DNA of 64,000 bases from Euglena gracilis (lineage: Eukaryota). Made by a program: the position numbers and the translations under genes. The notes beneath the pieces are model-generated. The model saw only the letters and a program-made list of their open reading frames with translations. It was not told where the DNA came from and searched no databases. The DNA lies in the NCBI GenBank assembly GCA_039621445.1, contig CP154954.1, positions 24,378,954-24,442,953 of the forward strand. The letters run 5' to 3'. This document shows positions 6,241 through 58,700 of this stretch, piece after piece (positions within the stretch are counted from its first letter, which is position 1; every line of letters begins with the position of its first letter).

Positions 6241-6888
6241 AACATGGACGGTGCTGACACTGCTGGACAAGATGCACATCTGGACAAGGTGCAGACGTTG
6301 GGCAATTGGGTGAGCATATTTGATGTCAATATTTCAACATAATGGGCCGATCACATGTTTGCTTGCTTTTGTTCTGCCGCTCGAGCTGAGCGCAATTTCA
6401 CCCAATTTTGCCACATCCAGATGGATGATTGTCTCAACATGACGGATGAAGTTTTACATCAAGGCTTCTTGAAGTCATGGATGTGTGCCATTTAGGTTTT
6501 TCACCATGTCAATTATTTGTGAGAGTTTCAAACAAAAAAAATCCTGCTTCGTCATTCGGCAACGTTCTCTTCATTCCGATTGAGTTCAACTTCCCACGAC
6601 ATTTATTTTATTTGTTTCTTTTGAAACCATTCAAATTAGCACCCCCCCCCAAGTTCCTTTTGTGGATTCCAGTTGGAGTTTATCCAATGTTCGGAAAAGA
6701 AGCTTATTCCCAAAGCCTTGCATTTGCATATTGCAACCAAAAACTTTTTAATCCCGACCACTCATTCCAAACGGACCTCCTTGGATGTGTTCGCTTGATG
6801 GCCGAAAATGGTCGAAAATGGCCGAAAATGGCAAAAATCGGGGTGGGTCAACTACGGGTGCTTGCCCGGGACCCAATGGGGGGGGGGG

Positions 6889-7532
6889 CAGGGCAGAACG
6901 GGAATCGGCCGAACAGCCAGGGTGGTGGGTGGGGGGGGTCGACCCCCCCCACCCCCTGCCTGGTGGGTGGGGACCCCTCCCACCCCCTGCATGGTGGGGG
7001 GGGGGTCGACCCCCCCACCACCTCTTCCCGTATTTCTGGGAGCGCCAATTTTTGGACCCGAAAAAATTTTGCTGCGCCTTTGGCGCCGGGTCTTTTTTTT
7101 TGGACCCATTTTGGGACCCATATAGGGTGTCCTCCCAAAAACCACCCAAAACCCCATTTTTTCACACTTTCCAAAAATTCAACGTTTTCTAAATTTTTTG
7201 ATTTTGAGTGGTTTTGAAGCAGAAAATGCCATTGAAAGTCCAAGAAAATTCAAAGAGAAAAAATGTCAGTAAAATTTGACTGTGCCAAGATTTTGTCCAC
7301 TTTTTTTTTGACCTTCGTTTTTTTTTACCCCCCCCCCTCTTAAAAACTACCATTTTTTAACCCTGATTTTTTTGAGATTTTTTTGCGAAAAAAATGTGGT
7401 TTTCCCTCAAAAAATCATGTGTTTTGGGTTCTTTTTCTGGCCAACATCCCCGTTTTCCCGAAATCGGTGAAAATGCTGTGGTGGGTGGGGGGGTCGACCC
7501 CACCCCCCACCAGGCTTTCCCGTTCTGCCCTG
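6889..7532. mobile_element. hAT-type MITE (TIR CAGGGCAGAACGGGAA) inserted in a poly-G run
   Basis: cagggcagaacgggaa at 6889 and ttcccgttctgccctg ending at 7532, with at least 8 G on both sides. Partial relatives at 19456-19711, ~20440-20625 and 40741-40965. Confidence 0.85.
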
Positions 7533-7982
7533 GGGGGGGGGGTCAGTCAGCAGCATTTTTCCAGCCAGCCCAAATTTCCCAAATTTCGTTAAAAAACACA
7601 CTGTGTGTTTTTTTTGATCCCGACACCCCATCACAGCGTCGGAACCGTTCCCAGGAGCCGTTCGAGCCACATCGCACCCGCAGTCCAAGCTCTGGCACAA
7701 CGTTATTGTAGCCCCCACTCCTTCCCTGACCCAGTCCCCGCATAGCCTCAGGCGGCCGACTTTGCCCGGTGACTTTTCGGGGAAACCCACCCATGTTGTG
7801 TTCATCATTCCAGGGGCCCTGACCTGTGTGGGACAGAGGGCCGATGGCACAGGCACCCCTGCTTCACGTTGCACACAGACACAACAAGTTCCTTCATCCC
7901 CCCGCCGGGGCTCCCTCCTTTCCTCAAGGCCAATTTTATCCCGCCAAAAATCTTTGGTTTTGCAGACCTGTGGGGGGGGGGG

Positions 7983-11169: not shown

Positions 11170-12790
11170 AATCTCCGGGGGAGGGTGACTGGTTTTTTCA
11201 GAGTGACTGACTGGTTTTTGGCCTGGACCCCCTCCCCCCGGGGGGGGGTCGACAAAAAGCCACAAAAAGTGACCCGGCGCCAAAGGAGCCGGAATTTTTC
11301 CCCCTTTTTTTCATGTTTTGGGTCAAATTTCCTTTGGATTCCAGAGTGGCCGACCCCCCCCCCCACCCCCCGGGGGGGGGTAGTGAATGACTGGCAGGCA
11401 TTATTTTTCAAGGCGAAATTTCTCAAAATTTTTAAAGGCATTTTTTAAGGTTGTTTAAGCTTGTTTAAGGTTTTTGGAGGATTTTAAAGAAATTTTAAGG
11501 TTTTTTAAGGCATTTTTTCCCTCAGGGAAAAAGTCAGACCCCGAAGACGGCCCGATGGCTTCAGACTCCCCTGTGGCTTCGGAACGCCCAAGGAAGAAGC
11601 CTAGGGCAAAGCATGGGGATCAAGGCGGTCCATGAGGGACAGTTATTGTCAACAGGCAAGCAAATGTCCTGAATAGGGTCAGAAATTTAAAGTAATTGCA
11701 ATGAAAAAAATGGATGTTTCGAGTTTGACCCACTCTGTATCCCATGCAACAAGGCGTTGGGCAACGTGTATGGCGGCACACTGCATGGGCACGCGTTTGT
11801 TATTGCTCACATGAAAAGTCTGATTATTTTCTCGGTGTTCATGAGGCTATCCGGTGTGGGTGCACGGGTTGCCGCATTGCGGGTCTGCAAATCCGCGATT
11901 GCGGTTCGGATATCCACTGTGTCATTTTGCCACTGTTGTTGCAAATTCTCCATCCTACTTGCGATATTCGAGATTTTGGGTGTGAAAGCATGCAAATTCA
12001 GCAGGAATTTCTCCACAATGGCAAGATTTCTGCTCCAAACGAGAAAGTCTTTCTTCCAACTGCTGCACATAAGTGCGGGGATCAAAACTTTCGCGTGCTT
12101 GGGCAAGAAAGTGGGAAAAATTCGCGGAATCACCTAATTGGAGAACGCGCTGTTTCGCTTCTTGAAATGCTGTGGCAAGTGTTGGAAACTGCTCCAGTGT
12201 AGTGAATTTCCCCAAATCGGGATTTTTTTGTTGTTCATGCAACTTTTGCTGCAATTGAACTTTTGAGCAATTTGGGTTGACTCCTCTAAGAATGTCTCAA
12301 GTCATTCAAATCAAGAAAGATGTGGTTGCAAGTTTTGCTTTTCCTGGCCGTGTGTCACAGCCTTTGGTGAACCGAGGCCAACCGAACTATGCCAGAAACC
12401 TTGGCAAACAATCCAGTTTTCATATTGTTTGTTCACAACCACAACCTTTTCTGCATTGACTGGCTTTATGTCTGCTGTTATTTGTTTGGTGCAAGAAAAA
12501 ATTTCTCAGGGAGAATTTTTAAGGTTTTTTAAGGTCATCACAGGGAAGAAAAACTTCCCCGGGGTGATTTTTTTAAGGTTTTTTAAGGCACTTTGGCAAA
12601 AAAATTTAAGGGTTTTTAAGGGTTTTTAAGCTTTTTTAAGGCGCCTTAAAAAGAACAATGCCTGCTGACTGGCTTCCCGAAAAAAGTGACTGAGTGGTTT
12701 TTCGAAAAGTGGAGTGACCCCCTCCCCCCCCCCCCCCCCGGGGGGGGTCGGTAAAAAAGTGTATGCCTCCATCCCGGGGGGGGGGGTGCA
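11170..12790. mobile_element. GTGACTGACTGG-motif element interrupted by the 11395-12664 insertion; relatives at ~14230-14490 and ~16120-16240
   Basis: Repeated gtgactgactgg/gtgactgg motifs with poly-C/G tracts; one motif is the target duplicated around 11395-12664. Confidence 0.6.
11395..12664 (-). mobile_element. Internally deleted hAT-like element with possible transposase C-terminal remnant
   Basis: TIRs caggcatt(a/g)tt..aaggcg; TSD atgactgg (11387-94) / ctgactgg (12665-72); minus-strand peptides FLAQARESFDPR and PKISNIA...NTEKIIRLF loosely resemble hAT C-termini. Confidence 0.7.
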
Positions 12791-26900: not shown

Positions 26901-27450
26901 AAAGTGCATTTTTTTTTTAAACAAGTGCATTTTTCCGAATCAGCATCTTCCCAAAGCCTATTCAAATGTAGACATCAAAATGCAGTGGCACATTATGTTT
27001 ATGCAACCATATGGACAATGTTGCATATGGTTCTCTCTGCAGCAGAGAGCCGGGAGCTTCTGGAGGAAACCACATGTAACTAGCGTTTTTTTTGCGTCTT
27101 TTTGCGTCGCATTTTTCATTCTTGTGACCCCCCCCCCCTGCCCAGGGAACCTCTGGGAAACCAGTCCTTATTCGGAATGGCATCAGTGGAGCCACTGGAT
27201 TGCCACGTGTCGCGTGTGTGACGGTGCACCTGATCACCAGCATTCATCATTGGAAGGATTGCATCATTGGGAAAAGTCATGCATCATTGGGAAGTTGATT
27301 CCCAATGATTCCAAGGAAGGCGCTTGTGCAGTGCAAAACTGTGTAGTGAACGGCTGGCTGATTTCGCGATTCATAATGGCGCAAAGGGAGAGAGCGGCAC
27401 AGGGAGGGGAGGGCTGTGCGTCCAAAACAACGTGTGTGTGCACAATCCAC

Positions 27451-27681
27451 CAGGCTATTGCTTAAGGGTTCGCAGCACCCACCCGGCGGGGGGCTGGACT
27501 GCAGCTAGTCCACATTTGGCCAGTGGAAATCCTTGTCGACCCTCCCCCCGGTCAACATGCAGCATATGGGATAAAATATTTTTTTCCCCAGACCCCCCCG
27601 GAGGGTTTCGCCAGTGGCTTTTTGCAGCGTCTAGCAAAATAGCAGCCAGTGCACCCCCCAGGGGGCTTAAGGAATGGCCTG
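27451..27681. mobile_element. hAT-type MITE (CAGGCT(T/A)TTGCTTAAG family, shorter copy)
   Basis: caggctattgcttaag ... cttaaggaatggcctg; TSD caatccac / caagccac (7/8). Confidence 0.85.
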
Positions 27682-29691
27682 CAAGCCACTGACACCCTCA
27701 ATGTGCGCGGATGCGTAATGTGTTTGGGAGTGCGCCGGAAGAATGGGTCCCGGGCCTGTCCGCCGGCGCATTTCTCCGTGAACGGGAGGAGGGTGAGCTT
27801 GGTTGTCAGCACCTGCCGGGTGGTCCACACCCGGGGGGGGGGGGGTGAGGCTCCGGCTCAGGGCTGGGCTGGCGGGGGGCTGCGCAGACGCTGCTGATGG
27901 GGCCTCCCGGAGACCGCCCCACGCCCTCCAGTACACCCCTCCTCCCTGACCGTTGCCCCATCCAACCGCTGACACTCCCCCACTCCATAAAGCTCCGAAG
28001 ACGCGACACGAGTCTCTTCAGCTTGGGGCCATCTCGCTGCTCTGATCGCCTTCTCCTTTGAGCCCCCCCCCCCCATAAGTACCTCACAGCGGCGGTTCCT
28101 GCCTGATGACGGAGGTTGTGCCCTGTTACCCTATGCTTCTCAGCTGCGCTGCGTTCGAGTGTCGTGGGGGCTGCGGCGCGACTGCCGCGGTCGGCATTCG
28201 TTTGGAGTGTGCTGCATCTGTTGCCGTTGCTGCGGGGGAGCTCACTCGTTTGACCACAAATTCACAGGGATCATTCAATTCAAACGGGTAGTCACGTGCG
28301 GAGTGGATAACTGCTGAAAGCATATCAGTAGGAAGCCCACCTTAAGATAAGTACTCTTCATAGGTTACGGTAAGACGAACCGTTTGATAGGTATTAGGTG
28401 TACAATTGGTTGTTGTCCCCCCAGCACATTGCTTTAACATTATCAAACTGTGTTACATTTTATGAATGGTTACATACTGCATCCCTGAAATCCTGAAGCA
28501 CAATCTTTGTTCTCGAAATATAACATTATTGTAACATTACGTAACATTACATCTAACAGTATTTATCTCCTAATTGCTCATATGATTGGCCAGGAGTGAT
28601 ACGTTGTGTTTATTTTTGAATCAGCACCTGCCAAATCTCATTGTTGTTTCTCTGTCCGTTGCATTCACCCTATACCAACCTCTTCAACACAACGACCATG
28701 CCCCTTTTTCCTTCAAATTTCAAACAGACTTTACAGACAAAATATCAACCTTTTCTTTTGAGCCATTGCATTCTTGTTCCAAAATGGGCATGGCTTTGTT
28801 TGGCTGAAGCATTCAAAGTACTCAGGGCTTGAATGAGGCCTGGGATAATTGTATCTGCCAGAGAAACAGGTCAACCGTGTTGTGCTTTGCTTCCTCTCAG
28901 CAATATTTTCCCTCCACCCCCAGGCTGTATGGTTTGCCCTTGTTCTGCTGGCACACCCACACCTGACAACAGTTTGCATGATGAAGACCTGCCCATTTGA
29001 TTTGTAACCCCCGAAGACGAGAAGTGATAAAATCTGGTCCAGAATGATTTTAATTCAATTTAACAAAATTGCAAATGTGTACTGCGCATCATGGGTGCTC
29101 AACGCCCCCTAGGTCTGATGAAAGGCAATTCAGTGAAGAAACAGGCTTAAATGTATGTGTTTTCCCCCTCCTTGCATGCAACTGCAGGTGACCTTCGGTC
29201 TTAAACTTGCGATCGTGGCTTTATTTCTTAATGTTTTGGCCTATTTCAATATGCTTTTGATTCCACTTTCACTTTGGAAAATTTCTAAAAAAGTTGCTTT
29301 ATTTTCAAGCCAGTTGAGGTCAGTGATTGCGAGTGCCGTTGACCCCCCCCCCCTGCACTTGGCTTGAGGATTGAAGGTAGGGGGTCAACCTTGGGGGCCA
29401 AGTTTCCATGTGAAGAATTTCGGCGAGACAAGTGCCCCTGATGACCACAGAATCCTGCACAAACTGCCAACGTTTTTTTTGGGGAGGATGGGGGAAACTA
29501 GCATTATTATTTCAAGTGCCTTAATTTTTCCGCGAATGAAAAAGTGAGTTTTAGGGAAAGAAATTTCTTGTAGAGTTCTTGAACTTAGGGAACCACAGGC
29601 ATCAACAAACAGAATGAATATGCCATGGCACAGGAAAGGGACCAAGATGCTTCACACTTGACCTTGGTGCAGTGGGGGTATTGGAAACTGT

Positions 29692-29745: not shown

Positions 29746-29843
<98 letters not shown>

Positions 29844-29974
29844 ATGTATTATATGTATGTATATGATATGTAATGTATATGTATATGTATATGTATATGG
29901 TATATGTATATGTATATATGGATATAACTATATATATATGTATGTGTGTATATATATATATGTGTGTGTGTGTG

Positions 29975-30039
<65 letters not shown>

Positions 30040-30040
30040 G
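29692..30040. repeat. Compound microsatellite (TATATG)n, (TG)n, (CA)n, (TA)n
   Basis: Directly visible; a similar tract at 31225-31355 flanks the other end of the 30041-31224 element. Confidence 0.95.
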
Positions 30041-31224: not shown

Positions 31225-31233
31225 TGTATATAT

Positions 31234-31288
<55 letters not shown>

Positions 31289-31410
31289 ACATATGTATAT
31301 ATGTGTGTATGCATATACATATGTGTGTGTATATATGCATTTGTATATATGTATAAATGAAAACGGCAAAGATGAGAGCAGCAGGGTGGGTTCTTCCCTT
31401 GATTTTTTTC

Positions 31411-31558: not shown

Positions 31559-32346
31559 TACCACACGTTGCACGTCGGAAGACGTACGACCCCCCCCAAC
31601 GATGGTTCACGGGTTGTAGGGTGTGGTCATTTGACAAACTGTTATGTCGTACAATTTGTCAGTCTACAAACTGTTCTGCCGTACCCTGCAGCTCCACTTA
31701 TCCCTCAGAGCCGCGTTGTGAATGGCCTTGCCGACGAGTTTCCTGCTCCATCTGATATGTGAGTCTGATTTGGACTTTTGTGCTATCCACAAACCCAGTG
31801 GTAGGACCGTCAAATTGCTTGATCAGAGGGGCCCAGGGCCCAGGGCCCCCCACTGTGGCACTGTGCATCTAAAGCCCCTTCTGCACCAAAGCTGTGGATG
31901 GGGAATTTTCACCTAAAACCCCCGCCCCAGAAAAGAAAAGAAAGAGCGCCCCCCCCCCCCCCTCCTGAGGGGGCCCATCCAGCCAGCCAGCTCCCTTTTG
32001 TTTCCCAGCCAGTGGCTCCCAGGCTGGCTGTGGAGCCCCCCCCCCCCCAAGAATCCGCTGGAATGCAGTTGGAGGCACAGCACAGGGCTGGACCGAAAAT
32101 GTTGAAAAGGGGGTCAAGATAGCCAAAATGGTGTATTTCAGAGTTGGGGCTTTGCAAATTACCTCCCCCCTCGGGCGCTTGGCTCCCGTCCTCCTTTCAT
32201 ACAACTTTGCCCCCCCCCCCCCAAATTGGCCTTCGGCCTTTTGCCTATGGCCGCCAGAATCCTTAACATGCAAACTTGGCCTCCACACCCCCCGACCCCC
32301 TCCCACCCTCAGGGTCCAACCAACACTTCCAGCCGGCCTGCTGGAC

Positions 32347-32772
32347 CAGGGGGTATTATGTTTTATGTTTTATGTTTTAAGGTGCAATTTTTTTAAAACA
32401 TTTTTACGTCTATTTTTATGTCTATTTTTAACGTTTTTTTTGCGTCTATTTTCAAGGGAAGTCCAAGGCCATCGTCCCAGCATCGAACGGGGTCCAACGG
32501 GGTCAAAGGAGTCTAAAGTTTCATTTTTTGTCGAGTTTGGGTGGATAGAGAATGTTCCTGTGATGTGAAAAATCATTTTTTTTTTGTCCGAATTGTCTTG
32601 TTTTTGCCGAGATTTTAATGGTGACTTCATTTTCGGATCGAATTTCAAAAACAGAAGAAATTTTCAAATTTTTTTTTCAAGGGGCTTACAGGCAATTTGG
32701 CCAAAATTTTTGAAACATTTTTTAAGGTTTTTAATATTTTAATATTTTTTAAGGCGCATTGGAAACCGCCTG
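32347..32772. mobile_element. hAT-type element with TTTTAAGG arrays
   Basis: cagggg... / ...ccgcctg termini; TSD tgctggac / ggctggac (7/8). Confidence 0.65.
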
Positions 32773-34182
32773 GGCTGGACCCCCACCCCCCGGGGTCCCC
32801 AAGAAAGCCCCTGATTCGGGTCCCAGCCCAAATGATTGAACCAGAAAGCGGCGTTTGAAAGTTGGGTTTTCTTTTTTTTTTGAGCATAGTGGGTGGGTTC
32901 ATTTACGTGGCTGCCCCACGACCCTCTGGTGCTCCACAGGCCACTGGATCCACATCGCACCCACAAGCCAAATGCCGGCGCATAACCGGCGTTCCTTCCC
33001 CTCTCCACGTGATGCCCACCGGCTTAGACGACCCCCGCGCCTTTTTATATTCCGAATTTTTTTTGCTCATCCTGCCTGGGGGGCAAAGGATATGCCGACG
33101 CCCCGTGTTCCACCCCATGGTGTTTCTTGTGCGTCGGCCGCGGCGCGTCGTTTAAGGAAATTTGACCCCATCCTCCAGGGGGGGGGGGGAGGGGCAGTCC
33201 AGCCAGCAGGCTGGAAAAAGCCGTGGACCCTTCCCCCCATCGACAGGAATTCTTTACCTTCGGGCGGCTGGCGGGGGCAGATCCTTTTTTGCATTCAAAG
33301 AATTTTATGAGAAAGACGCGTTTTTGCGGTTTCGATTGGTCGGTGCCGTTTTGACCCCCCCCCCCCCAATTCGGCCCAGTTCCAGCAGGGGACCCCAATG
33401 GAGAGGTTCAGCCAGCACCCCTTTTCCAACCAGTCACAATTTTCCAGGCTCTGGGTGGCATCCATGGGGGTTGCCAAGCGGTTTTTTCAAGTCTTATCTT
33501 TGACCTTTTGGGGGACTGGATATCTAAAGACCATTGTAAAACTGACAAATAAGGCTGTGTGGGGCTTCAAAGGGGAAGATGGTGTGGTCCAGAATTTCAC
33601 AGAATTGACTGGGGAGCAGGAGGATACAATGGAATGAGATTGAGTGGCAGGCCCAAGGGTAGTGGTGGAAATGGGTTGGCAAGTATTTTTGTTTTTTTTT
33701 TTATGGTGGTGAAAGCTTGGGTGAGACAGAATAGGCGGAAAGACTGAGAGGAAGCTTCCATATTTGCATATATTTTTAGAATTGAGGGGAGAAGAATTGA
33801 AAGCTTGCTTTTTGCATAATTTTTTTTGTATAATGAAAAGAAAGTTTTCCGTTTTTTGTTTTTTTGCATACTTTGCTCTGCCATTTTTTGATAAGATTTT
33901 TTTCGGGAGGTTGCATAGGGAAATTTGTTTTTTTTTGCAAACATTTGCGCTTACACATTTTGGGACCAATTTCACATTAAAAGTGAAATTGAAAATACAT
34001 ACAGCGTGTCAAATAATGCCAGTTCCCACTCGTGTCGCAAAGTACCACAATTTCATGTTGTATTTTCTTTTGGTGTGCTATTTATTTTTTATTTTTTTAT
34101 TTTTGTGGCATTTTTTTTTCGAAAAATAATGTGCAAGGTACTATTTTGCAAATGATTGTCCAAAGCATGCACTTTTTTTCTA

Positions 34183-34747
34183 CCCGCCCCCCCCCCCTTG
34201 TCGCACGACCGCCCTTCATTTACGCCCCCCCCCCCGGTCACAGGTTGCAGGTTATGGGGGTGTTACGACCACTCCCCCCCCCCCGGTCACAGGTTGCAGG
34301 AACCCGGTCGTACGACAGGGGGGGGGGCAGGGTTCGATATAAGGAGGGCGTACATGGTTTAGGTGGGGGGTGTCCCCCCCACCCCCCCCCCCCTGGCCCG
34401 CTGGGGGGTGGCCGGACCACCCCCCCCCACCTGCAAGGGGGGTCCGGACCGACCCTCGGGGGCAAAAATTGACCCCCCCCCCAAAAAGGGTCATTTTTTT
34501 CCTCCGGCGCTTCGCGCCGAAATTTTTTTGCATTTTTGGCACATTTTTGCCCAAAAAGTGCCCAAAATGGCACTTTTGGTCGTTTTGGGGGGTCAAAAAT
34601 TTTCGGGCCGAAAATTCGGCCACCCTGACCGCGCACCTGTTTAGCTGGGGGGGGTGTCCCCCCCCCCCCCCTCCTGGCCCGCAGGGGGGGGGGTCCGGAC
34701 CCCCCCCCCCCACCTGTCCTTATATCGAACCCTGGGGGGGGGGCCGG
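34183..34747. mobile_element. TA-flanked MITE carrying a nested hAT MITE in its right poly-G tract
   Basis: ta|cccgccccc..ttgtcgcacgacc ... gtcgtacgacagggg[insert]ggggccgg|ta. Confidence 0.75.
34328..34734. mobile_element. hAT-type MITE (TIR CAGGGTTCGATATAAGGA)
   Basis: Perfect 18-bp TIR cagggttcgatataagga / tccttatatcgaaccctg; poly-G on both sides. Confidence 0.9.
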
Positions 34748-35512
34748 TACAAAAATAATCTGCCACAATGAAAAATAAGGCCAATATGGGACGATTTCTA
34801 ATATCTATCCTTGGTGTAACTTCACGCACTGCTCCAGCAACCCGGCATTGTTTTTCCTCCTGAGACTTGTGTGCGAAGCGGGCCACGGGCGACGGCGACT
34901 TTCTGCGTGCCCCTGCGCGGCGTTGGACCGGGAGGGAGGGGCCTCGCCCCACCTCGCCGCCGTCATCGCCAGCCTCCCTCCCCTGCGCTGCTCTCCGCCG
35001 TTCGCGCCCAACCCTGCGGCTCGCTGCCTGGGTCGGTGGTGGGGTGGTGCTGGTCAAACACCTCCAGCGGCAAATCCCGACACATCCCGACAAATCCCGA
35101 CAACCCTGTTTGGGCCTCCTGTAGGTGGGGTTCTGACGAATCCCGACACATCCCGGCAAATCCCGACAACAGCTCCATCATTTTTGCAACAGAGATGAAA
35201 TTGCCCAAAGAAGGTTGTTTGATCGGTCATTGGTTTACACAACCTGGTTTTTTTGGCTATGATTTTATTTGGTGACTCTTCTTTTGTTCTCTTTTATTTG
35301 GTGACTGATTCTTTTCAAAGTTTTTTTTGAAAATGAGAGTTTAATGTTTTTGTTTTTTTTTCAGTATTTTGGCACAAGAACACCCCACATCATTGCTCTT
35401 ATTCATCGGTATGGGTTTGACCAAAGTCGCCAGTTTTTCTGCTTTTTTTTAGGTTTTGTTTGGTTAATACCCCCTCCCCCTTTGTCCTTGGCAACTGCAG
35501 TTCTATGACACC

Positions 35513-35812
35513 CAGGGATTTTTTTAAGTTTGGACCCCCGGGGGGGGGGGAGGGGTGGGCTAGGTTGGCTGGGTCTGCCGCACCCCCCCCCCCCCCGGGG
35601 GGCGGTACCCCCCGGAGGGGGGTGGGATATACTTTTCGGCGCCGCAGGCGCCGAAAAAATTCTATTTTTAGCACTTTTCGCGATTTTTCGGCCATTTTTT
35701 GTGGGTCCCCCGGACCCCCCTGCCCCCCCCGGGGGGGCCCCCCCCCCCAGGGGGCGGGGTGGCTGGGGGGGGCCCGCCCCCACCCCCCCCCCCGGTCTTA
35801 AAAAAACCCCTG
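35513..35812. mobile_element. hAT-type MITE with perfect 8-bp TSD
   Basis: cagggattttttaag ... cttaaaaaaacccctg; TSD atgacacc at 35505-12 and 35813-20. Confidence 0.9.
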
Positions 35813-36049
35813 ATGACACCCCCCCCATGTCAATCACAATCACATTTTCCCTGTACTTTGGCAGGTCAAGGACAAGGACGGGGGGGGGGGGGATGTACAA
35901 GGCCTCAGAAAGAAGCTTGGCAGAAGTGTTTGAAATCATCAGTTCAATGGAACTGCTTTAGAACTGCTTGGAATCCTCCAATTGTTTTGGGGCTTCGTTG
36001 CACCTTCACTGTTCTCCAGCCCTTAAGCTACTCGCTTTCCCTACCACAT

Positions 36050-38373: not shown

Positions 38374-38731
38374 CCTCCCCCCCTTGTCGTTGACACGGCG
38401 TGTCGTTGACACCCCCCCCGTGTCAACGACACTTTCCTGGAACATATTTTTTTCTTTTGCGTTGGCCACAGTTTCTGACAAATTTCAGCCAGGACATTTC
38501 AAAAATGGGTTGAATCTTCTTTCCAGCCATGGCTTCGAATGTCATCCTCATTCGCACCGGCCACAGTGTGGCGGACATGCATTCATGGGGTCATTCATTG
38601 TCACTGGTGCGGTCGTTTTTGTTTTTTTGGGTATTGTGTCGTTGACACGGCGTGTCGTTGACACCCCCCCCCCCCCGTGTCAACGACACTTTCCTGGAAC
38701 ATTGGCGTGTCAACGACAAGGGGGGGGGAGG
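38374..38731. mobile_element. TA-flanked MITE (TIR CCTCCCCCCCTTGTCGTTGACACG)
   Basis: TA at 38372-73 and 38732-33; long TIR with repeated gtgtcgttgacac/gtgtcaacgacac motifs. Confidence 0.9.
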
Positions 38732-38859
38732 TATTTTCAATCATGGCCCTGGCCAAGCGCACGGGGGGGGGGGGGGGGAAAATGCCCTTTGTATTAGGGG
38801 AAATTTTTTTCTCCTTATCCTTCCACCCAATGCATCAAAACAAACACTTCCCCACCCCT

Positions 38860-39579
38860 CCGCGGGAGGAAAGCTGATTCCCAGCTTGGTGGCGGTAATT
38901 GCTTGGCGTCTGCCAGGACGCGGATCACCGGGGCGCGCTGGCCCACAGCGAGGACATCTACCGCGAGGGACGAATCATCGAAGAGCAGGGCTCCTTGGGG
39001 GAGAAGCCGACGGACAGTGTCTCCATCCAACTGGGCTGGGCAACGATGCCGGTCGACTACGGCCAGGATCGAGATGACCGTCGCCGGATCCTCAAACGGG
39101 AGCTGAAGGTGCACCCGTTCCACCCACCGCTCCAGATGTGGGCGCGGGGGTATGATAAGCAGATGGGGACCACCCGGACCCCAAGGCTGCACCTCTTTCG
39201 TCCGCAAGGCGGCGGTGTCCGAGATATCCACACCGGAGAGGAAATCACCGCCCACGAGGCGCACACCGTGCAGGCTCACCACTTGGTCAGAGACCAGGTC
39301 CGGGGCCAACGCGCGCAGCCATTTAGGGTTCAACCGCGTGTCGTAGACGCGGATGGGGACGTCCGGGGCGACAGCTGGGGGAAGCCCCCAGCCGGCGGCA
39401 CGCAATGTACCAGCAAGTTGAAGGTCCCGTAGCTGTCGCGGTTCTAGTCGTACCGCTGCCGTCAGTGTGCGTCGTTGCGCGGAAGCCGAATTCCCGTGCA
39501 GCGCATGTTGTCGCCGGTTCCGGAGCCGCCGGTTGAGGGACCAGGGTGTTGAGGGAGCGGGCAGCCTAGGGGCGGCCAT
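38860..39579 (-). pseudogene. Probable N-terminal half of the LINE ORF1, inverted relative to the element body
   Basis: Open GC-rich frame MAAPRLP...WESAFLPR with a gccgccaagATGg start context; it stops at an abrupt composition change and joins in frame to NKVLVAMR at 40966 (+). Confidence 0.65.
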
Positions 39580-39736
39580 CTTGGCGGCCCGACGGAGTGG
39601 GTCGGTGGAGCTGGAACATCGGGATGCTGAGGGGGGGGGGGGCTCTGAACAATGCTGGCAGCATGAAGCTGCTTCCACACATGGGGGCTTGAGTGCGAGC
39701 CTGTGTGCCTGTGCTTTTGGCAACCAACCTCGCAAC

Positions 39737-40169
39737 CAGGCTTTTGCTTAAAGACCCCGGGGGGGGGGTGCTGGCTAGCCTATCGGCTAGACATTGGAAA
39801 AATTGGACTAGCTGGACCCCCCTCCCCCGGGGGGGGAGGGGGTCCGGGGGTCCCCCCAACTGGAAAAAAAAACTTGGAAAAAAATGGAAATGAGGTTTTT
39901 AATGGGTTTTTGGCTGATTTTGTTTCCAAAACTTCCCAAGAATCGCCAAAAAAGGGCAGTTTTGGTCATTTTTGGGGTCCCAAAAAAATTTCTGACGCTT
40001 CGCGCCAGTCACTGGAAAGAAAAATTCCACTAGCTCGCCCTGCTAGCAGACCCCCCCCCCCCCGGAGGGGTCTGCTAGAAATCCCACTAGCCAAGTTGGA
40101 CTAGCTGCAGTCCGCAGCTAGCCCCCCCCCTGGGGGGTGGGGTACTGCAATCCCTTAAATAAAAGCCTG
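39737..40169. mobile_element. hAT-type MITE (TIR CAGGCTTTTGCTTAA), perfect 8-bp TSD
   Basis: TSD ctcgcaac at 39729-36 and 40170-77; CTAG(C) subterminal motifs; inverted copy at 51403-51839. Confidence 0.95.
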
Positions 40170-40284
40170 CTCGCAACAGCGATCGACCTTCAACAAAACA
40201 GCTTTTCACCAAGAAAAACTGTTTGCAAACTGTTGGGGGAGGGAATCCAAATTGTATCGGGGGGGGATGCCCATTGGGGACCGA

Positions 40285-40700
40285 ATGTCTGGCCGGGAGA
40301 GGGCTCCTCCTCCACCTGCTCCAAGCCATCAACGAGACGCGCTCCGTTGATCGCCCATTCCGGGCGGCGGCGCGCCGGCAACGGGCGGGGTCGCCGGAGC
40401 TGTGGCCAGGGACCGAGGCCGAGGTGGTCAGTGGACGGCGCGCCAGGAGGGCGGGGCCTGGCCGCTGTCCTGAACCGGATCAAACCACAGCGTCAACCGC
40501 GCTGGTCCCCCACGGGGTCGCCCGGCTTCCTCCGGCACCGTCGACCCCACCGGCCTCCGCCCTCCTCTGGTCCCTGGGCGCCTCCCTCATTGTTCCGCCG
40601 GGTTGGGAGGCGGGACCACGTGGGGCCGTTGGGCCCGGCCGGGGGGCTGGGGCACGAGGGGGTGCAGCCCATCGGCTGCCTCTTGAGGGAGCGTCAGGGG
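40285..40700 (-). repeat. Third, reverse-oriented relative of block 19820-20265 / 52785-53190
   Basis: Reverse complement shares gaggca(t/g)ccgatgggctgc and tggagcaggtgga..gagccctctccc(a/g)gccag. Confidence 0.7.
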
Positions 40701-40740
40701 AAGAAGAACTGCACGTCGTAGCCCTGGGGGCAGGGCGGTA

Positions 40741-40965
40741 CAGGAAGACCACGGTGGGGGGGGGTCGACTCCCGCCCACCGTGGCACCCGTTCAAAGAAA
40801 ATTCCTTTGGCACCAAGGCGCCGAAAGGAAATTTTGACCTAAAAACTGGCGGCACCGAAAATACGGGAAGGCCTGGTGGGGGGGACCCCTCTTACCCCCC
40901 ACGAACGTCGACCCCCCCCCCCGACCCACCACCCATAACGTTGCGGGGATTCCCGTCCAGCCTTG
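40741..40965 (-). mobile_element. Half MITE (one terminus of the 6889-7532 family) at the LINE inversion breakpoint
   Basis: Reverse complement caaggctggacgggaatcc...gggtggtgggt..gggggggtcgac resembles the start of 6889-7532. Confidence 0.7.
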
Positions 40966-43900
40966 AACAAGGTCCTCGTCGCCATGCGAGTGCGTCGGGC
41001 TGGGCCGGAGCATCTTCCCCTTCACGGCTCTTGGATCCGTGGCCAAGGATCCAATCAGGGTCAGGCCATCCCTGACCCTGAACCCTCGCCACTTGAGTTG
41101 CTGTGGGTAGAATATGTGGCCCCCCGGCCACTCGGCAACGCCATGTGGCCAAGGAGGCCCGTCGCACGCTGGAGAAGCTGGGTATTTTGTTTGGTCAAGC
41201 ACATCGCCTGCAGCAGGTGACCGAATCTCACGGCGGTGTGACGGCTGTATTGGCCGTCCCGCAGGTGGAAGCAGTGCGATGGCTGCACGGCTCAGACCAT
41301 TCCGGCTTGTTTGTCCGTCCGTACTGGTCAGCAGACACTTCCCTGGACCTGCACCACGGCAAATACAACCTCTTCTGGCTGTGAGGCCGGCGCGGTGAGG
41401 CTGCGGCGCTCTGGATGGCATCGCGGGCCTCTTGCTCTCTGACAAGGACGTGGCGGTCCGAATCTCCGGTGCCGCAGAGTGGTCCGACTTGGAGGCGCAG
41501 ATCCGCTTCCTCCTTGGGGACCCGAAGGTCAACATCCACCAGCCGGTCCGGGATGCGGCTTGGTGGCGACTGGCTCCGCTGGCTGACGCCGACGTATTTC
41601 GGTTGTTTGACCTGATCGCCGAACTCGGCTTGAAGCCCTTGCAGCTACGCCTTGTAGCAGCGGGGCCATTTCGTCCAGCTGCCTATTTCCTGGCTACTGG
41701 TACGCCGTGCAACTCCTTGGACAATGGCGGATGGGGTCACTCTTGCGCCGCGGTTCTCTCTTCTGCTTCCCCGCCGCCACGCACTCCCGTGAAGAAGACC
41801 TCGCTAGGCCCCGCATTTTCACCGTCCTCCACCTGGGGTGCCCGTCAGCCCCCCGGCCCCCCTGCCGTGCCGGCGGTTCAGTCCCCCCTGCCTCGGTGGC
41901 CACCGCACCCTCGGCCTGCGGCCACCAGCGCCCCGAGTTCCCGCGCCGCGAGGCGCACCGCCCAGCGCCAGCAGCCTGCAGCGTGCCAGTCTCCACCTGC
42001 CGCCAGCTTTCCCCCGATCCGCCCCTCGCCGCCCGCATCCCCTCCCGGCTTCACTGACCTGGTCATGGAACTGCGCATCCTGTGGCAGGCTCTCAATCGC
42101 CAGGCTTTGGAGCTGCTGGACCTTCGCCGTGAAAATGCAGATCTCCGCCGCTAGCTCGCCGCTGCCCGCCCCGCCCCCCGCGCGGACCTCTTCCAACACC
42201 AGCCCTATGTGTCTCCCAGCCCCCCGCCTCCCCGATTGTCCGACGCAGCCCTGCTGAGCTAGGATGAGAGGATTGCAGCCGCTCTACAGGACCTGCCGCC
42301 CTTGGCCGTCGCGCGACCCGTCACTCCACCGGACACCATCATGAGGGACGCCGAAGATGACACGCGTGGCTGTGCCCGTGATGCGGGTGAGGCCACTCAG
42401 CAGCCAGGAAGCTCTTGCGCGCCGCCTCGGTGGAGCGCGGGCGCAATGTCTAGCCCGTCAAAGCTGGGGGCTTCTGCCTCCCCTGGGGATTCCCAGGTCC
42501 CCGTCCTCCGGATAGGGACTTGGAACATGTCCCACTGGACGCCTGCAAAGGCCCTCGCTCCGCGCCCCACCTGCCCCGCGGCCTCCTCCCGCTGTCCGTC
42601 TATGCCCCCCTGGACCGCCAAGCCGCGGAGCGTGCTTTGCGGCTTTGACCTCTGTCTCTGCCTTTGACCTCGCCTTCGAGGAGCTGTCCCACTCCTTGGA
42701 CATGCAGGTCCCTACCCTACTCCTCGGCGTCTGGAACGGCTCCGTCCTCCCTTTGCAGGGCCACTCCGGCCGCCGGCGCCACCTGCTCTCCCACCTGACC
42801 GGCCCCAGCGCTCCCCTGGTCGGACGTCCACGCCAACCTGCTGCCCGTGCCCCTACCCATGACCTTCCGCTCGCCCCTCTACTCTGGGGTCGTCACGGCC
42901 TCCCGCATTGACCTGATCCAGCCAACTCCGCCGTCCTCGCTCTACTCCGGTGGACGAGGACTTCCGTGACGGTGGTCACTCCCCGGCGTTCGTCTCCCTC
43001 GCCCTCCCCAGCGGCCGCATCGACTGGCACCCACCGCTTCCGCGTCCGCCCCCCCTACTGTGCGGCCCGACCTCGCCTCGTCCGAGCAGTGGTCCGACGT
43101 GCTGCTCCGATGGTATTCCACCCCGGAGGCCGCTGCCCTGTCCCCGTCTGCCGCACACACCCTGGACTTCCTCTCCCGCGCCATCCACACCGCGCTGGAC
43201 CTCTTGGTGCTCCTGGCTGGCGGCTGGTCCACCCGCTCCTCCGCCCGCCGGCCTGCTTACGACTCCCCGAAGGTGCTCCGGCTCCGTGGCATCCTCACCC
43301 TGCTACATCGCCTGGAGATGCTCTCCTCCACCCCGTTGCCGCCCGGATCCTGGCCTTGGCCCCTTATTAAGCTCCTTGACACCCTCCACCTGTGCGGCAT
43401 CCAGCTGCCCCGGTCTTCCGTGCCGTCCTTGCGCCGCGCTCTGGCTGCAGAAGCCGCTTCCTGCCGCTCGACCGTGGACAAGGAACTACAAGCCCTCCGT
43501 CGCGTGCGGAACTTCCGGTGGCATGACTCCTTACCCCGTCTCTGGCACGAGCGCCCGGCCACCATCTTCCGTTGGCTGAAGGCGGAGTCCATTCCGTTCG
43601 GATCCCGCCCATCCTGGACGCCGCCGGGCAGCCTCTCCCGCCAGGACGTGGACATCGCCGTGCGGTCCTTCTGTGTCAACGACATCCTGCGGCAGCACGC
43701 CAGCCATTGCCCTGCGGAGCAGTGGGCAGCCTTTGTGCCTTTGGAGTTTGGTGCCTACATCCTCTCCGCCGTTGGAATGGCTGAACGCCTACGTGGTCAT
43801 GATCCCCAAATTGGCCAGAGGCGCACGTCCCCAAGATCAGCGCCCCATCACTGTCCTGGAGGTGGTGTACCGCGTCTGGTCGCCATGGGTCTGCCTTTGG

Positions 43901-46226
43901 GCGCCTTCGCGGTCCGCGAGCCCATCGCCGAGGACCGCCTCCTGCAGCTACGGTGGCTGCAGTTCCTCGCCAACTCCCCCTCCCTAGTCGGTACCATCCA
44001 CCGCGCCGTCGCCTGCCCCGCCTCAAAGTGGCGCGAGCCCTCCCCCGCCCTGCAGTCCGCCCTGACGGCCCTCGGCCGGACGCTACGCCGCAATCCCACC
44101 TCCACCCTGGCCTCCGCCTGGCCTCCCTATCCCGGAGCCCGCCAACCGCTTTCCCCTTCCCGATGCAGCCTTCACAGATGGCTCCCTCGGCTCCCATTGT
44201 GGTGCGGCCGTCTGGTGCCTGGACACGAAGACGTCGCGCCTCATCGCCGTTCCCTCCCCGCGCAGCAGTTCACACTGCGAGCTCGCCGCCCTCGGCTCCG
44301 CCCTGTCCCTCCACCCCCCCCCCCCCGGAGGTGTTCACGGATTCGCTGTGCTCCCTCCAACTCCTCCGCCGATGGGGACTCCGTTCTCCGTCCGCCGTCC
44401 TCCGCTGTCCGGATCGGCTCGAGGTCTGCCACGTCCTCGCCCTCGCCCACTCATCCCCGTGCCCACCAGCCCTGCAGAAGGTCAAGGCACTCGACAACAC
44501 GGCCCTCTCCGCCCGCCACCCCCTTGCCGTAGGCAACGACATGGCCGACTCCCTGGCGAAACAAGCAGCGCGTTCCCGCGGTCTCCCCACAAGGGACCCC
44601 CCTGCCGCATGTCACGCTGCGGTGGAGCTGCTCGACGCCATGGGCACCACGGTCCTGGACATCCAGGAGCGGTTCCCCCTCGCTTGGTGGCTCCGCCAGC
44701 GCTGTGCGTGGGCCCTCCAGGATCCCGCCCCCGCCTCGAGTTGCTCTTCCTGCGGGACATGGCGTTCGACTGGATGGCGTCTGCCGGCATCTTTGCCCGG
44801 CTTTGCTTGCGCTCCAACGCCTTCCACCACCCCGTGGCCCCTGCCGTGATCAAGTGGGTGGCTCGTGTACGATCCGGCTGCCCGCCACCCAAGCTCGTCG
44901 CGCGCGGTGCGGCTTCACAGAGGACCCCACGTGCCCGTGCTGCGGAGAGACGGAAGAAGACGACCGCCACTTGCTGGCTGGCTGCCCCGCCACAGGCTCA
45001 GCAGACTGGCCGGAGGCCCTCCCGGAGCTGTGTTTGTCTTCCGCCAACCGCTGCTCCCTCTCCATCCCCCCGCCGCCAACCCCTTGGATAGCGGAGCATC
45101 ATCTCCTCTGACCGCTGCCCTGATCCCAGCGACGATTCTCGAGCACCACCCAACGTCCCCCGGACGCCCTCCGCTTCCTCCGCCGCCTCCATGCTGCCCT
45201 GGCCGAGCGGCTAGCTGAGCTGCTGAGCCGCCGCTGCACCCTGCTGCTGCCCCCCAGCGGCCCCGCTGGAGATCCCACGGCTCCTCCTCTGACCACAGCC
45301 CGCCGCGTCTCCGTCGCCCCTGCCCGCTACCTCCAGAACGCCAGCTCTCCATCCCAGACCTCTGCCGCCTCGAGTGGCTCGCCGTGAGGCCCCCCCCCCC
45401 CCCCCCCCCCACCAACATCGGCACCCATCCCGCCCCACAGTGAAGCCCGACGCCTGTGGCTCCGTGCGCGGCTCCTCCGTCTGCTCCCCGAGGACATGGT
45501 CGTCTGCCCTGCGTCCGCCGGATGCAGCGCCTTCCTCGCCATGTTCGAGTACGTCACATGCGAACCCTTCACTGCCTCCCCCCCGGCACCGTGCCAGTCT
45601 CGTGCCACCGCCCTGGCCCACGTCCTCGGCAACCTCATCCACGAGGGTGCCCACCTCTCCCCTCCCCTCGAGCGCATGCAGCGGCAGGGCATCTGGTACT
45701 ACAACCGTGCCCCCCGTGCGGCCCTGGACACCGACGGCTGGCTCTGCTCCACTCGCGCCCGGAGGCTGCGCACCCCGCAACCGCCCTCCACATCTCGATG
45801 GGCTCCGTCGACGCCTCCCTCACTGTCTGGATCCGGGACCACCGATTCCTCCGCCCCGTCCCCCCAGAACATGGCGACTGCAGCATGGCTCTCCTCCTGC
45901 TTTGGGAGACCGACCACGGCTGCCCCTTCCCTACCACGGCGACATCAGACCCGGCCAGCCGCCCCCCCGGTCGTCCCCTCTCCCCCCCAGCCGGGCGTGG
46001 CGCCCCGCCCCTCCTCTGGTGGATCCCCGGCCCCTGAAAAGGCAGTCCACCCTGTCCGCCTGGATGCAGCCGCCCCGCGCTCGGTCGCCACCCCACGGCC
46101 GGGCAACGGAGGGCCCACCGACCTCGGCGGGCGCAGGCGCGGGAATCTGATGACGGTGATGGCACTCAGCCACTGCCGTTGAGCCCATGCAGCGCCCGGT
46201 GATGGACGACTTCATCACCTACCTAA
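40966..46226 (+). mobile_element. Decayed non-LTR retrotransposon (APE-RT-RNase H-CCHC; possibly I/Ingi-group-like)
   Basis: ORF1 remainder 40966-42154. APE motifs LRIGTWNM, LLLGVWNG, SRIDLI, GGHSP (42500-43000). RT N-terminus EWLNAYVVMIPK...RPITVLEVVYRVW (~43775-43880). RNase H AFTDGS, SSHCELAAL, VFTDSL, KVKA, GNDMADSLAKQAA (44166-44570). CPCCGETEEDDRHLLAGCP (~44930-44990). Confidence 0.92.
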
Positions 46227-51249: not shown

Positions 51250-52170
51250 AAAAAAGGATTTGACAGTTGGGAAACACTTCCATTCATCACGGTGGATGAC
51301 ATAGCACGAATGGCGATTCCCCAAAGAGTTCGGTGTTTGATAGAGGAGGCCAAAAAATTGATTGGTCCCACACCCTGCACCGTTGTGAGCCGTGTCTGGG
51401 AGCAGGCTTTTGCTTAAGGGATTGCAGTACCCCCCAGCGGGGGGGGAGCTGGACTGCAGCTAGTCCAAATTTGGCTAGTGGGATTTCTAGCAGACCCCCC
51501 CGGGGGTTGTCTGCTAGCAGAGCTAGCTAGTGGAAATTTTTTTCCTAGTGACCGGCGCGAAACAATTTTTTTATGGACCCCCCAAAATGACCAAAAAAAC
51601 CCCGTTTTTGGCCATTTCTGGAAATTTTTGGAACAAAATCAGCCAAAAACCTATTAAAAACCTCATTTCCACCCCGGCGCGCAGCGCCGGAGGAAAATTT
51701 TTTTCTCAGTGGGGGGGGGACCCCGCCCCCCCCCCCCCCCCGGAGGGAGGGGGGTCTAGCTAGTCCATTTTTTCCAGTGTCTAGCTGATTGGCTAGCCAA
51801 TACCCCCCCCCCCCCCCGGGGTCCTTAAGCAAAAGCCTGTCTGGGAGCCCGGTGAGGGCAGCTTGAAACCAGCCCAGACACTGCTTATTTTCGGCGTATT
51901 TATCCGAACCGGCGTCCAGGGCAACAGGGCAGGTGAAACATTTGAATTTCGAAGAAAACAGGGTCGGAACATGCGATCGCCTATTTTCAGAGCGCTGTGC
52001 ACTGTGGCTTCTGAGTTCTGAGGGTACCAAGCGAAAGGTCTCGAAGGGAGATTTCAATTGATATGCTGTATGGTTCCTGAGCTGGGGGATTTGACAAATT
52101 AGTATGTCAAATTTTGGAATACACAATCGCTGAAAATAAGAGTTCTGTGCATTACGGTTGAATTCTGTGG
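51250..52170 (-). pseudogene. Possible hAT transposase C-terminal remnant, split by the MITE at 51403-51839
   Basis: PINFLASSIKHRTLWGIAIRAMSSTVMNGSV resembles the hAT dimerisation pattern P+xFW...PxL..+A...+S; frameshifted. Confidence 0.35.
51403..51839. mobile_element. hAT-type MITE (TIR CAGGCTTTTGCTTAAGG), perfect 8-bp TSD
   Basis: TSD tctgggag at 51395-402 and 51840-47; reverse-oriented relative of 39737-40169. Confidence 0.95.
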
Positions 52171-55700: not shown

Positions 55701-58700
55701 AAGAGTTTGGGTTGGGGTCTGGGCAACCCCAACCAGGCTTCGTTTGAAGGTGCCGGCTTCTCGTTTGACTCAGAAGACCCCGCTGGGTGGGCTGAGCCTA
55801 CCCTCCCAGAGGAGGGGGTTCGGCTCTGGCTGGCTGGGGGTTTGGGTGGACAGCTTTGGCATAACACGCTGTAAGTTTCGGGGAAATGGCCAAAACTGAT
55901 GGGGAATGGGGGTTTGGAGGCCTTTTTCCCCCGAGGCCAGGAATTGGGGTTTGAGGGCTTTCTGTTTGATGGCAGACCACCCCCTTCCTGAGCTCCTCGC
56001 TGGGCTGGGTGGGCGGAGCCACCTTGAAAAACAATCACGCATTTATTGCTCTTCGGGCACCTGTGGGACTGCAGGCCAGCTGAGGGGGTCCAGAGGTGCC
56101 AGAGGTGTGGTACACTCCCCCGCCCAACGGGTAATATTGCATCCCAGCCAGGTTCGGCCCAGGCAAACCTCCTTTGAAAATGGCCATTTTCTGGCCCTGG
56201 CACCTTTGACACTCAACGGTCTGCTCTAGCTCTAGCTCTAGCACTACCCTCTCCAGCCCTTGACCCTCCCCGCTGGGGGGGGGTAAAGAGTTAAGAAAAT
56301 GCCGATCTGGACTACGCACACAGTGCAGCCTAAACTTACAGTTGGGGATACAGGTGGAAATTATTGTATAATCAGAAAAAGAGGGAAAAGCAACCTTTCA
56401 TGAAGAACCTTTCAATGGAATGATGGGTAATGATGGTGATTATCCTAATTTTAACAAAGATGCCTTCAGCAAAAATACCAACTCTAAAATTAAAATGGCC
56501 AGAATGGTCTTCTGGAGTCTGGTGGTCTTTTGTTGCGATAAAGAGTGCCCCAAACGTTCGTTTCATAAACTTTATGTCAAATTTGCGTGCACGTGAGAAT
56601 GGCGACCCAATGTTTATGGGAAACGTAAAATGGACAAAAAATGAAGGGAAAAATGATGGGAAAATCGAGGTTCCCACATTTTTGTCTCTTGTGATGTTCG
56701 TCCAGATTGTAAGGAGAATATGCACCAAAAATGAGGGACAGGAAACGTTTTTTTCCCCTTGAGAGAAAAAGGAAAACAGGGTGTTGTCTTGTGTTTGAAA
56801 CTGATTTTGGGCATGTGGCTTCTTTCTCCGCAGGCTTTTGATTGCTCTCATGGGCTAACGTGTCGGCTTTTTCCAGGTGCCTGCCGGTTGAAAGAAAATC
56901 TGATGCACAGGCGTTTGTCTGCCATCGCCCTGTTGGGTTGGGGAAAACTCAACTCAAGTCTGGCGTGCATGGCGGATTTGTTTGACCTGAATAAAATGTT
57001 TTTTTAACTCCACCGCATTTTGTGTCCCCATTATTGTTTGAATGGACCATCCCGTTATGTTGGATCAAAATTGCCCCTCACCCTGATCTCCTCCATTTTT
57101 GTTCTTCAAAGTCTTTTCCGTCCTCCTGCCTGCGAACGTGTCCCCCAAACGTCGGCCCGACGCTCCTGCTCAAACTCATCTCAGGGCGGATCCTTGGGAG
57201 GAGATAAAAATTCCTGGCAAGACATGCACACCTTCATTTAACCTCGCCTTCCCTTCTGGGGTTGGTTGGGTGGGAAGGGGTTGCAGCCAGGACCAATCCA
57301 GCCGGAGTTTTGGCTTTTAAAGTCGTTGGTGAATGGGCCGTTGGGGTGAGTGGGTCGACCGCCCCCCCATTGGGTGGTTGGAGAACCCACCTCTAACTTT
57401 TTTTTCGAGTGAACTCCCCAAAAAGTGATACCCCTTATACACCAACTCAACCAACACGAAAAAACACGAAATGGAAAGATGAGTGGCAACAACTCGAAGA
57501 AACTGATTCACAAACTTTTTTTCTGACCAAGAGCAAGGTTATCCAAGAGCAAGGTTATATTGTGAACCTTGAACCATCTCGGCTTCTCGAAGAATCACAA
57601 ACTTCTCCAAAATCTTGAAACCTCGAAAAATCTGGAGGGGGTTCCAAAGTGGCTTAAAATGCAATGAAGCCTTAAATGGTTTAGGGGGAGGTTAAGGTTG
57701 GTCATTTTTTTGCCATTCCTGGCACCTTTGGCCACTCTGGTAATTGTTGACCATTTTTTCGGCAATTTGTGGTGATTTTTGGTATTTTTGCAATCATTGG
57801 CCATTTTTGGGCACTTTTTCCGCCGCCTTTGGTCGCTTCGGCCATTTTTCTTTTGGACAAAACCTTGACAAATCTCGAGGAGGGGGGGTCAAGCATCTCG
57901 ACTACCTTGGAACCCCTCCCCCAAAGTCAAGATCAAGATCCAACCGAACCAAGCGAAATGCCATTCTGAAATAAAAACTTTTCAATAACCTTGCCTGGGG
58001 GTTGCTTTGCAATTAGCCAAACAATTCTTTCATTTAAATCCCCCCATTTACAAACCATGCCTTCGGCCGGCCCAACAAATCAGTTTGTACGGAAGCCGGG
58101 GGGACTTATAAGTGGTTTGGAGGTTTAGCTCCAACAATCGATCACTCACTTCAAGACGAAGGGCAACCTTATTGAAACCTGGTTGGCTGACGAGGGTGCT
58201 TGGTCACTAAATTCAGATCCCTTCGGTGAGTGCCTCGCCGCACCTCCACTATTCACGCCGTGCAGAAGGCTTGCTTCCTGGCCTCAAACCGCATTCTTTG
58301 CTCCCCCTCACCTGCACTGTTTGTGTGAGGAGAGACCTGTGGCCGGTCTCTCCCCACCCCAGGGCTGTCCGCGAGGTCGACCACCCCCCACCCATCATGA
58401 CTGGGGGTTCATCCCCCTCCACCGGACCTTCCCATATTTCGGGGGCGATTTTTTGGTCAAACGTTTCTTGTTGTGGCTGGGGGTGGGTCGACGTCCCAAG
58501 ACCTTCCTGTACAGCCCTGCTCCACCCTACAACCGACATCTTTCTTTCCTTCCCCCCTCCATCGGCCATCCGTTATGGTGTGCAGCGTTTGGACGGAATG
58601 GGAAGCGTTCTGTATCGTTTTTCTCGTCATTCTATTTTGGATTGCAGTATGAATCATCTTGCTCATTTTCTTGGGCACGAAAGGGAGAGTCCCCAAATAA

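Follow-up and report, generated by a model that had tools for sequence, protein, structure and literature searches.

Among the closest described counterparts of the elements considered here are the nonconventional introns of euglenids, for which a cis-code has been set out and experimentally tested in Euglena. As given in the accessible text of that report, the code runs through a spacer of 3 nt, CAG, some 12 paired bases, CTG, a spacer of 5 nt and a purine at the exon start, and its testing by knock-ins indicated that end pairing is required and that a 3' spacer of 5-6 nt is tolerated (PMC12501133). The same portion of the report places nonconventional introns at 71.8% of E. agilis introns and finds repeats at the junctions, which make the introns 'slidable', in 84.4% of the introns of that species (PMC12501133). 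The intron sets given there number about 413,000 for E. gracilis (EugrA) and 649,158 for E. agilis (PMC12501133). Both junctions of an intron share a pyrimidine/purine pattern (PMC11282704), and the third base of the downstream exon is preferentially C (PMC4770533).

The origin of these introns and the mechanism of their removal have been open questions since the 1990s. An origin from MITEs was proposed in 2013, when no transposon was known in euglenids according to the available part of that publication (PMC3935182), and the proposal was made again in 2016, in 2024 (PMC11282704, accessible text) and in 2025 (PMC12501133, accessible text); a MITE origin in general is already in print and is not new. 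Within their accessible portions, the publications proposing it leave the source element and its superfamily unnamed, and no publication that ties a MITE origin to hAT transposons or to an 8-bp flanking duplication (TSD) was found in the openly readable literature. The paper on the chromosome assembly of E. gracilis gives a figure of 4.6% for DNA elements and, in its available text, mentions neither hAT nor MITE (PMC11252322), and no hAT family in any euglenid was found in the literature searched.

A second comparison is offered by the introner elements of Micromonas, Aureococcus, dinoflagellates and Amoebophrya, which are MITE-like, use the TSD to supply part of the splice signal, and are cleanly removed from the mRNA after insertion (PMC11282704), as is predicted for the elements described below. 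Introners are excised by the spliceosome, which uses GT/GC-AG or variant sites, and their TSDs measure 3-5 nt (or other lengths), whereas the removal predicted here would proceed by a non-spliceosomal CAG/CTG stem code with both cuts inside an 8-bp TSD.

Results

The DNA analysed is a single stretch of 64 kb, referred to as the window. It was scanned for elements that begin with CAG, end with CTG, are flanked by 8-bp repeats differing at no more than one position, and have inverted ends (TIRs) with at least 11 matches in 14 positions. Nine elements passed this mechanical scan (one 160-bp element being counted twice), whereas 20 first-order Markov simulations of the window each gave none. When all 64 terminal trinucleotides were scanned, only TAT, ATA, TGT, ATG, GGG and GCA returned more matches than CAG, with CCC tying. 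Nearly all matches for ATG and GCA fall within microsatellites at 29.7-31.3 kb or a block of palindromic repeats at 48.4-50.3 kb, and we take the excess for TAT, ATA, TGT and GGG, judged from composition alone, to be microsatellite or homopolymer artefacts.

The CAGG(C/G)...CCTG non-autonomous elements of the window span 160-1270 bp and have inverted ends of 14-18 bp; in most copies 14-18 of the first 20 positions match, and a sub-terminal TTAAGG is common to most families. Every element starts with CAG and ends with CTG, directly adjoining the duplication. Six duplications are informative, three of them perfect and three matching at seven of eight positions, and the repeats cannot be extended past 8 bp. 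The sequence-only reading had described CAG...CTG elements with fold-back TIRs and 8-bp TSDs, and the scan and its simulations bear out that these are real: the three perfect duplications that it listed are present, at 35513-35812, 39737-40169 and 51403-51839; the two imperfect ones at 11395 and 27451 were both recovered by the scan; and the element that it placed at 32347 is present at 32347-32772, though its weak TIR misses the scan threshold.

The focal MITE occupies 39737-40169 (39729..40177 with its TSDs), a length of 433 bp at 54% GC, and lies between two perfect copies of CTCGCAAC at 39729-39736 and 40170-40177. It starts CAGGCTTTTGCTTAAAG and ends CTTAAATAAAAGCCTG, and its TIR (CAGGCTTTTGCTTAAAG / CAGGCTTTTATTTAAGG) matches at 14 of the first 20 positions. 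The 437-bp element at 51403-51839 (51395..51847), which has the perfect TSD TCTGGGAG and inverted ends identical over their first 17 positions, belongs to the same family in the opposite orientation. The two copies are only 78% identical over 470 columns, a level at which recent activity of the family is not evident. A shorter element of 231 bp at 27451-27681 (27443..27689), with the TSD CAATCCAC/CAAGCCAC (7/8) and the TIR CAGGCTATTGCTTAAGG, is 82% identical to the 51403-51839 copy over its 5' ~96 bp.

The remaining elements differ in size and composition. The third perfect TSD, ATGACACC, flanks a 300-bp element of 69% GC at 35513-35812 (35505..35820) with the TIR CAGGGATTTTTTTAAG / CAGGGGTTTTTTTAAG, of which a degenerate relative with 73% identity is present at 8388-8571. 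The longest element, of 1270 bp at 11395-12664 (11387..12672), has the TSD ATGACTGG/CTGACTGG (7/8) and a TIR that begins CAGGCATT, and no transposase domain was found in it. The AT-rich element at 32347-32772 (32339..32780; 426 bp) has the TSD TGCTGGAC/GGCTGGAC (7/8) and the TIR CAGGGGGTAT / CAGGCGGTTT, which is the weak one that falls under the scan's TIR threshold. Two elements have perfectly inverted ends, one of 407 bp at 34328-34734 (34320..34742; CAGGGTTCGATATAAGGA, 18/18 identical) and one of 644 bp at 6889-7532 (6881..7540; CAGGGCAGAACGGGAA, 16/16 identical), and both have eight G residues (GGGGGGGG) on each flank, which makes their TSDs uninformative. Either G-runs are a favoured target of these two CAGGG elements or the true TSD is hidden. 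Runs of 8-13 G or C are common within the MITEs, and a run of 21 C residues is present at 45390-45410.

The 160-bp element that begins CAGGGCTGT, at 58360-58519 (58352..58527), is a weaker case with a low-complexity TSD (CCCCACCC/CTCCACCC, 7/8). Its second copy, at 63448-63607, lies within a 97% segmental duplication. That duplication (57797-58907 and 62881-64000) consists of two 1.1-kb copies with 97.4% identity about 5 kb apart, the second running off the end of the window, and both copies carry the same 160-bp CAGGG element. Copies of the window's elements were also sought elsewhere. A 17-nt TIR led to 115 metagenome loci, none of which contained the MITE, and BLAST with the whole window and with three of its elements returned only matches of 20-36 nt, at chance level. 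A 15-nt TIR word found in one grouper ATAC-seq paper was likewise taken as chance.

These features suggest that the CAGG(C/G)...CCTG elements are hAT-type non-autonomous cut-and-paste DNA transposons (MITEs) of several related families, an assignment to which a probability of roughly 0.75 can be attached. A transposase supplied in trans and encoded outside the window would bind the inverted ends, excise the element and insert it at an 8-bp staggered target cut, and repair of that cut would leave the 8-bp duplication. Pfam detected no hAT or other transposase domain in the 412 ORFs of 80 aa or more that the 64-kb window contains, so the elements are non-autonomous, and any partner that they have lies elsewhere. 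The hAT end motif is YARNG; the CAGGG families match it, and the CAGGC families miss its fifth base.

Compared with known hAT MITEs (relatives of Ac/Ds, hobo and Hermes), the window elements share the 8-bp TSDs, the CAG...CTG termini, TIRs of 14-18 bp and a non-coding interior. They depart from them in the CAGGC families that fall outside YARNG, in their richness in G/C homopolymer runs, and in the absence of an autonomous partner with the same TIRs among the ORFs of at least 80 aa. Additionally, the target sites are suggestive of a partial bias of the hAT kind. Insertions of Hermes, a canonical hAT element, are given in the accessible part of PMC2803484 as having 8-bp TSDs with the consensus nTnnnnAn. 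In the six informative TSDs of the window, half-sites of this consensus (T at position 2 or A at position 7) are present at 7/12 positions against 24% expected (binomial p = 0.012), a small sample, and the focal TSD CTCGCAAC has both.

The length of the duplication is also what would be left by Merlin (IS1595-like) transposons, which have TSDs of 8-9 bp and from which the elements could instead derive. The available text of PMC8101967 describes two Merlin families in E. gracilis, both with 8-bp TSDs, and presents Merlin as the sole DNA transposon superfamily described so far in that species. Merlin elements thus resemble those of the window in combining TIRs with 8-bp TSDs in a euglenid genome. 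Merlin encodes a DDE_Tnp_IS1595 transposase, however, and its TIRs end in a conserved 5'-GG (PMC8101967, same portion), whereas the window elements have CAG/CTG tips, and the suggested partial nTnnnnAn bias fits hAT. A Merlin derivation therefore seems hardly probable.

The setting of the hAT-like elements is a window composed almost entirely of decayed repeats, in which Rfam, Pfam (on the 412 ORFs of at least 80 aa) and a tRNA search identified no recognisable host gene. Rfam gave 0 matches in the window at the gathering threshold and no tRNAs were found in it. The Rfam matches at the E-value threshold were microsatellite and hairpin artefacts only, and one zf-Paramyx-P Pfam match among the window ORFs was spurious.

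On the minus strand at 38818-39747, next to the focal MITE, is an ORF whose product is a member of a ~750-aa protein family that lacks any Pfam domain; the family has 107 representatives, and EG_transcript_3634 is its sole named member. As located by tblastn, the N-terminal third of this protein lies at 39636-38713 on the minus strand and the C-terminal two-thirds at 40966-42427 on the plus strand, with frameshifts, and residues ~280-329 are represented in both of these head-to-head halves. Further along the plus strand, at 42970-45108, there is an endonuclease-like ORF followed by zf-RVT; the sole relative of this ORF, P0001, carries Exo_endo_phos (AP-endonuclease), and the zf-RVT match (44533-45108, plus strand) is weak and below the Pfam threshold. 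The region from 38713 to 45108 looks like a decayed, GC-rich retroelement of the non-LTR type whose 5' part is inverted, as twin priming would leave it. The two halves are separated by 1.3 kb, within which the focal MITE lies; the MITE is a transposon within a transposon, inserted in the 5' region of a decayed retroelement and outside any recognisable host exon. More generally, the copies in the window are apparently transposon insertions in transposon-rich DNA that appears to be non-genic.

A GC-rich repeat with three diverged copies (59-70% identity; 19825-20276, 40268-40751 and 52727-53192) adjoins the retroelement and may be its 5' region. An empty site for the focal insertion was sought in the paralogues at 19.8-20.3 kb and 52.7-53.2 kb, which align only from 40268 rightwards and stop about 100 bp short. 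Several other repeats are present in the window. A dispersed family of nested palindromes with GCAAATG/TGCGCA motifs (3658-4506 and 48139-50686; 77% identical between the two sites) forms near-perfect hairpins, for example at 4438-4506 and 48440-48487, and gives spurious miRNA-like Rfam matches. A tandem array at 18547-19095 has a 154-bp unit in 3.6 copies with 73% matches and related pieces at 23490-23703, and compound (TATATG)n/(AC)n/(AT)n microsatellites at 29693-30040, 31219-31355 and 2301-2714 form large imperfect palindromes.

A cut between positions 5 and 6 of the TSD gives every element the arrangement of CAG at +4..+6 and CTG at -8..-6, a geometry that is potential only. The sequence-only reading had given, as a rule of euglenid introns, that CAG at +4..+6 pairs with CTG at -8..-6, and had reasoned that the spacers of 3 and 5 nt add up to one 8-bp TSD. 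The rule is in print and has been tested experimentally, and the arithmetic agrees with the published code, as far as the accessible text of PMC12501133 extends. The focal element, folded as RNA on each strand together with the 3 nt that precede CAG and the 5 nt that follow CTG, pairs CAGGCUUUU with AAAAGCCUG on either strand and leaves a 5' tail of 3 nt and a 3' tail of 5 nt. The z-scores of the two strands are -5.2 and -5.1, and none of 100 shuffles folds as well. The elements combine CAG/CTG ends, pairing of those ends and a duplication of 8 = 3 + 5, so that the transcript of any copy, whichever way the copy is oriented, would display the cis-code published for nonconventional splicing in Euglena. 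If the cuts fell 3 nt ahead of CAG and 5 nt past CTG, the element would be lost along with one duplication and the original sequence would be restored.

The bases at the predicted junction follow the published pattern less closely. The earlier claim of C at position 5 followed by A at position 6 holds for the three perfect TSDs (3/3) and fails for those matching at seven of eight positions (0/3), and it is a weak, post hoc pattern. Neither C/A (3/6) nor pyrimidine/purine in general (4/12) at positions 5 and 6 was accepted as significant. A purine at position 6 is present in 4/6 TSDs on the plus strand and 3/6 on the minus strand, which is chance level; no selection for a purine would be expected at this position, since the copies are non-genic.

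With this geometry and end pairing fitting the published code, it might be supposed that the window copies are themselves working nonconventional introns in transcribed genes, removed between TSD positions 5 and 6. When the focal element and one TSD were removed in silico, stop-free frames of 324 and 407 codons spanned the junction, and a frame of 343 codons likewise spanned the junction of the 11395 element. The frames over the focal junction are, however, rich in Arg, Pro and Ala, as expected of non-coding DNA of 56-65% GC. The flanking ORFs (of at least 80 aa) are without any Pfam domain, the homologous protein begins downstream of the focal MITE, and the surroundings of the copies are decayed transposons. 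It is decidedly unlikely that these particular copies serve as introns.

Published junctions of E. agilis provide a further comparison. Junctions in the supplement of PMC4770533 were counted by eye at tubB-15 and hsp90-3, -5, -7, -8 and -9, with six strains each; the positions left out were tubB-9 (CTG...CAG), hsp90-6 (CAA...TTG), gapC-2 (CAA/AAA...TTT) and gapC-4 (CAT...ATG). At the six intron positions 29/36 rows start with nnnCAGG and 24/36 end with CCTGnnnnn, where the rows for each position are orthologous and non-independent (PMC4770533).

One published intron is informative as to the position of the cut. Intron 4 of gapC is present in a single strain, E. agilis ACOI 323, and was recently gained; it is a TIR element with a copy of the 8-mer GTCCCAAC on either side (PMC4770533 Table S3), and this 8-mer also fits nTnnnnAn. 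The intron reads GTCCC/aac-CATTACCTTG...CAAGGTATG-gtccc/AAC, with the slashes marking the cuts, each of which falls between repeat positions 5 and 6. This is exactly where the junction inside the 8-nt repeat had been predicted from the window elements (PMC4770533), and the geometry argument is sound, with an unremarked precedent in published data.

For the authors of that study, the 8-nt repeat at gapC intron 4 might be a footprint of double-strand-break repair (PMC4770533), and excised nonconventional introns are circular RNAs (PMC11282704), so that the 8-nt repeats could be ascribed to break repair or to an RNA-level spread of introns by reverse splicing of such circles. Against both, a constant 8-bp repeat at several families with inverted ends outside genes is a transposition signature. 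Break repair leaves repeats of variable length, and reverse splicing leaves none. An origin of the repeats by either route is extremely unlikely, and transposition of hAT-like elements is the preferred reading of them. A likeness of sequence should also be noted: the core CTTTTGC of the TIR in the focal family recurs at the ends of hsp90 intron 6 of E. agilis (CAAGCTTTTGCAC...GTGCAAAAGTTTG). It was noticed by eye and post hoc, and it is a lead and not a test.

Discussion

The elements of the window and the nonconventional introns of E. agilis and E. gracilis have CAGG...CCTG ends and paired termini in common, and the introns range from tens to thousands of nucleotides in size, as the window elements do. 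They differ in that a purine at the predicted exon start is unenriched in the window elements, and the link between the two rests on geometry and one post hoc likeness. On these sequence comparisons the MITE families of the window are a plausible candidate source of euglenid nonconventional introns. That they, as hAT-like MITEs, are the actual progenitors is put forward tentatively, at somewhat less than even odds.

The simplest competing account is that these are ordinary hAT MITEs of an organism without nonconventional splicing, and that their resemblance to the introns is a generic hAT signature. CAG...CTG ends and an 8-bp TSD are generic features of hAT elements, also in organisms without such introns, and geometry alone therefore cannot tie the window families to introns. 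The 8-bp TSD and the nTnnnnAn target are likewise general hAT properties, shown in insects in the accessible part of PMC2803484, and there is no marker gene in the window. The proteins point the other way. The only named homologue of any window ORF is EG_transcript_3634 (eukprot; 46% identity over 263 aa), and identifiers of this style belong to E. gracilis transcripts according to the available text of 10.1101/228015. No database protein exceeds 59% identity to a window ORF, the best match being an unnamed ENA record, and searches of 5.8 billion proteins with two retroelement ORFs gave no more than 1 and 15-19 relatives, a scarcity that fits a sparsely sampled protist and would be unexpected in an animal or plant. 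The host is probably a euglenid. It is accordingly unlikely that the elements belong to an organism lacking nonconventional splicing, and this account retains more weight than a reading of the window copies as functional introns.

If the window families are indeed the progenitors of these introns, the splicing code could be viewed as the RNA image of a hAT insertion, made up of the TIR tips and an 8-bp TSD cut between positions 5 and 6. Such a model would explain the exact removal of the introns and why most of them are 'slidable'. The pyrimidine/purine pattern shared by both junctions would arise because both are the same position of the TSD, and the C favoured as third base of the following exon would correspond to position 8 in a hAT target resembling GTnnnnAC. 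The spacers of 3 and 5 nt would not be arbitrary; they would be what erasing an 8-bp duplication needs.

Should the host not be a euglenid, the elements of the window are ordinary hAT MITEs. Should it be one, free-standing CAGG...CCTG families with exact 8-bp TSDs would supply the missing source of its introns, and the idea of a MITE origin would become a counting exercise that asks whether an intron equals a MITE plus 8 with its junctions between TSD positions 5 and 6. If the hAT-insertion model is true, insertion in either orientation would be tolerated, and exons would become safe landing sites for these elements.
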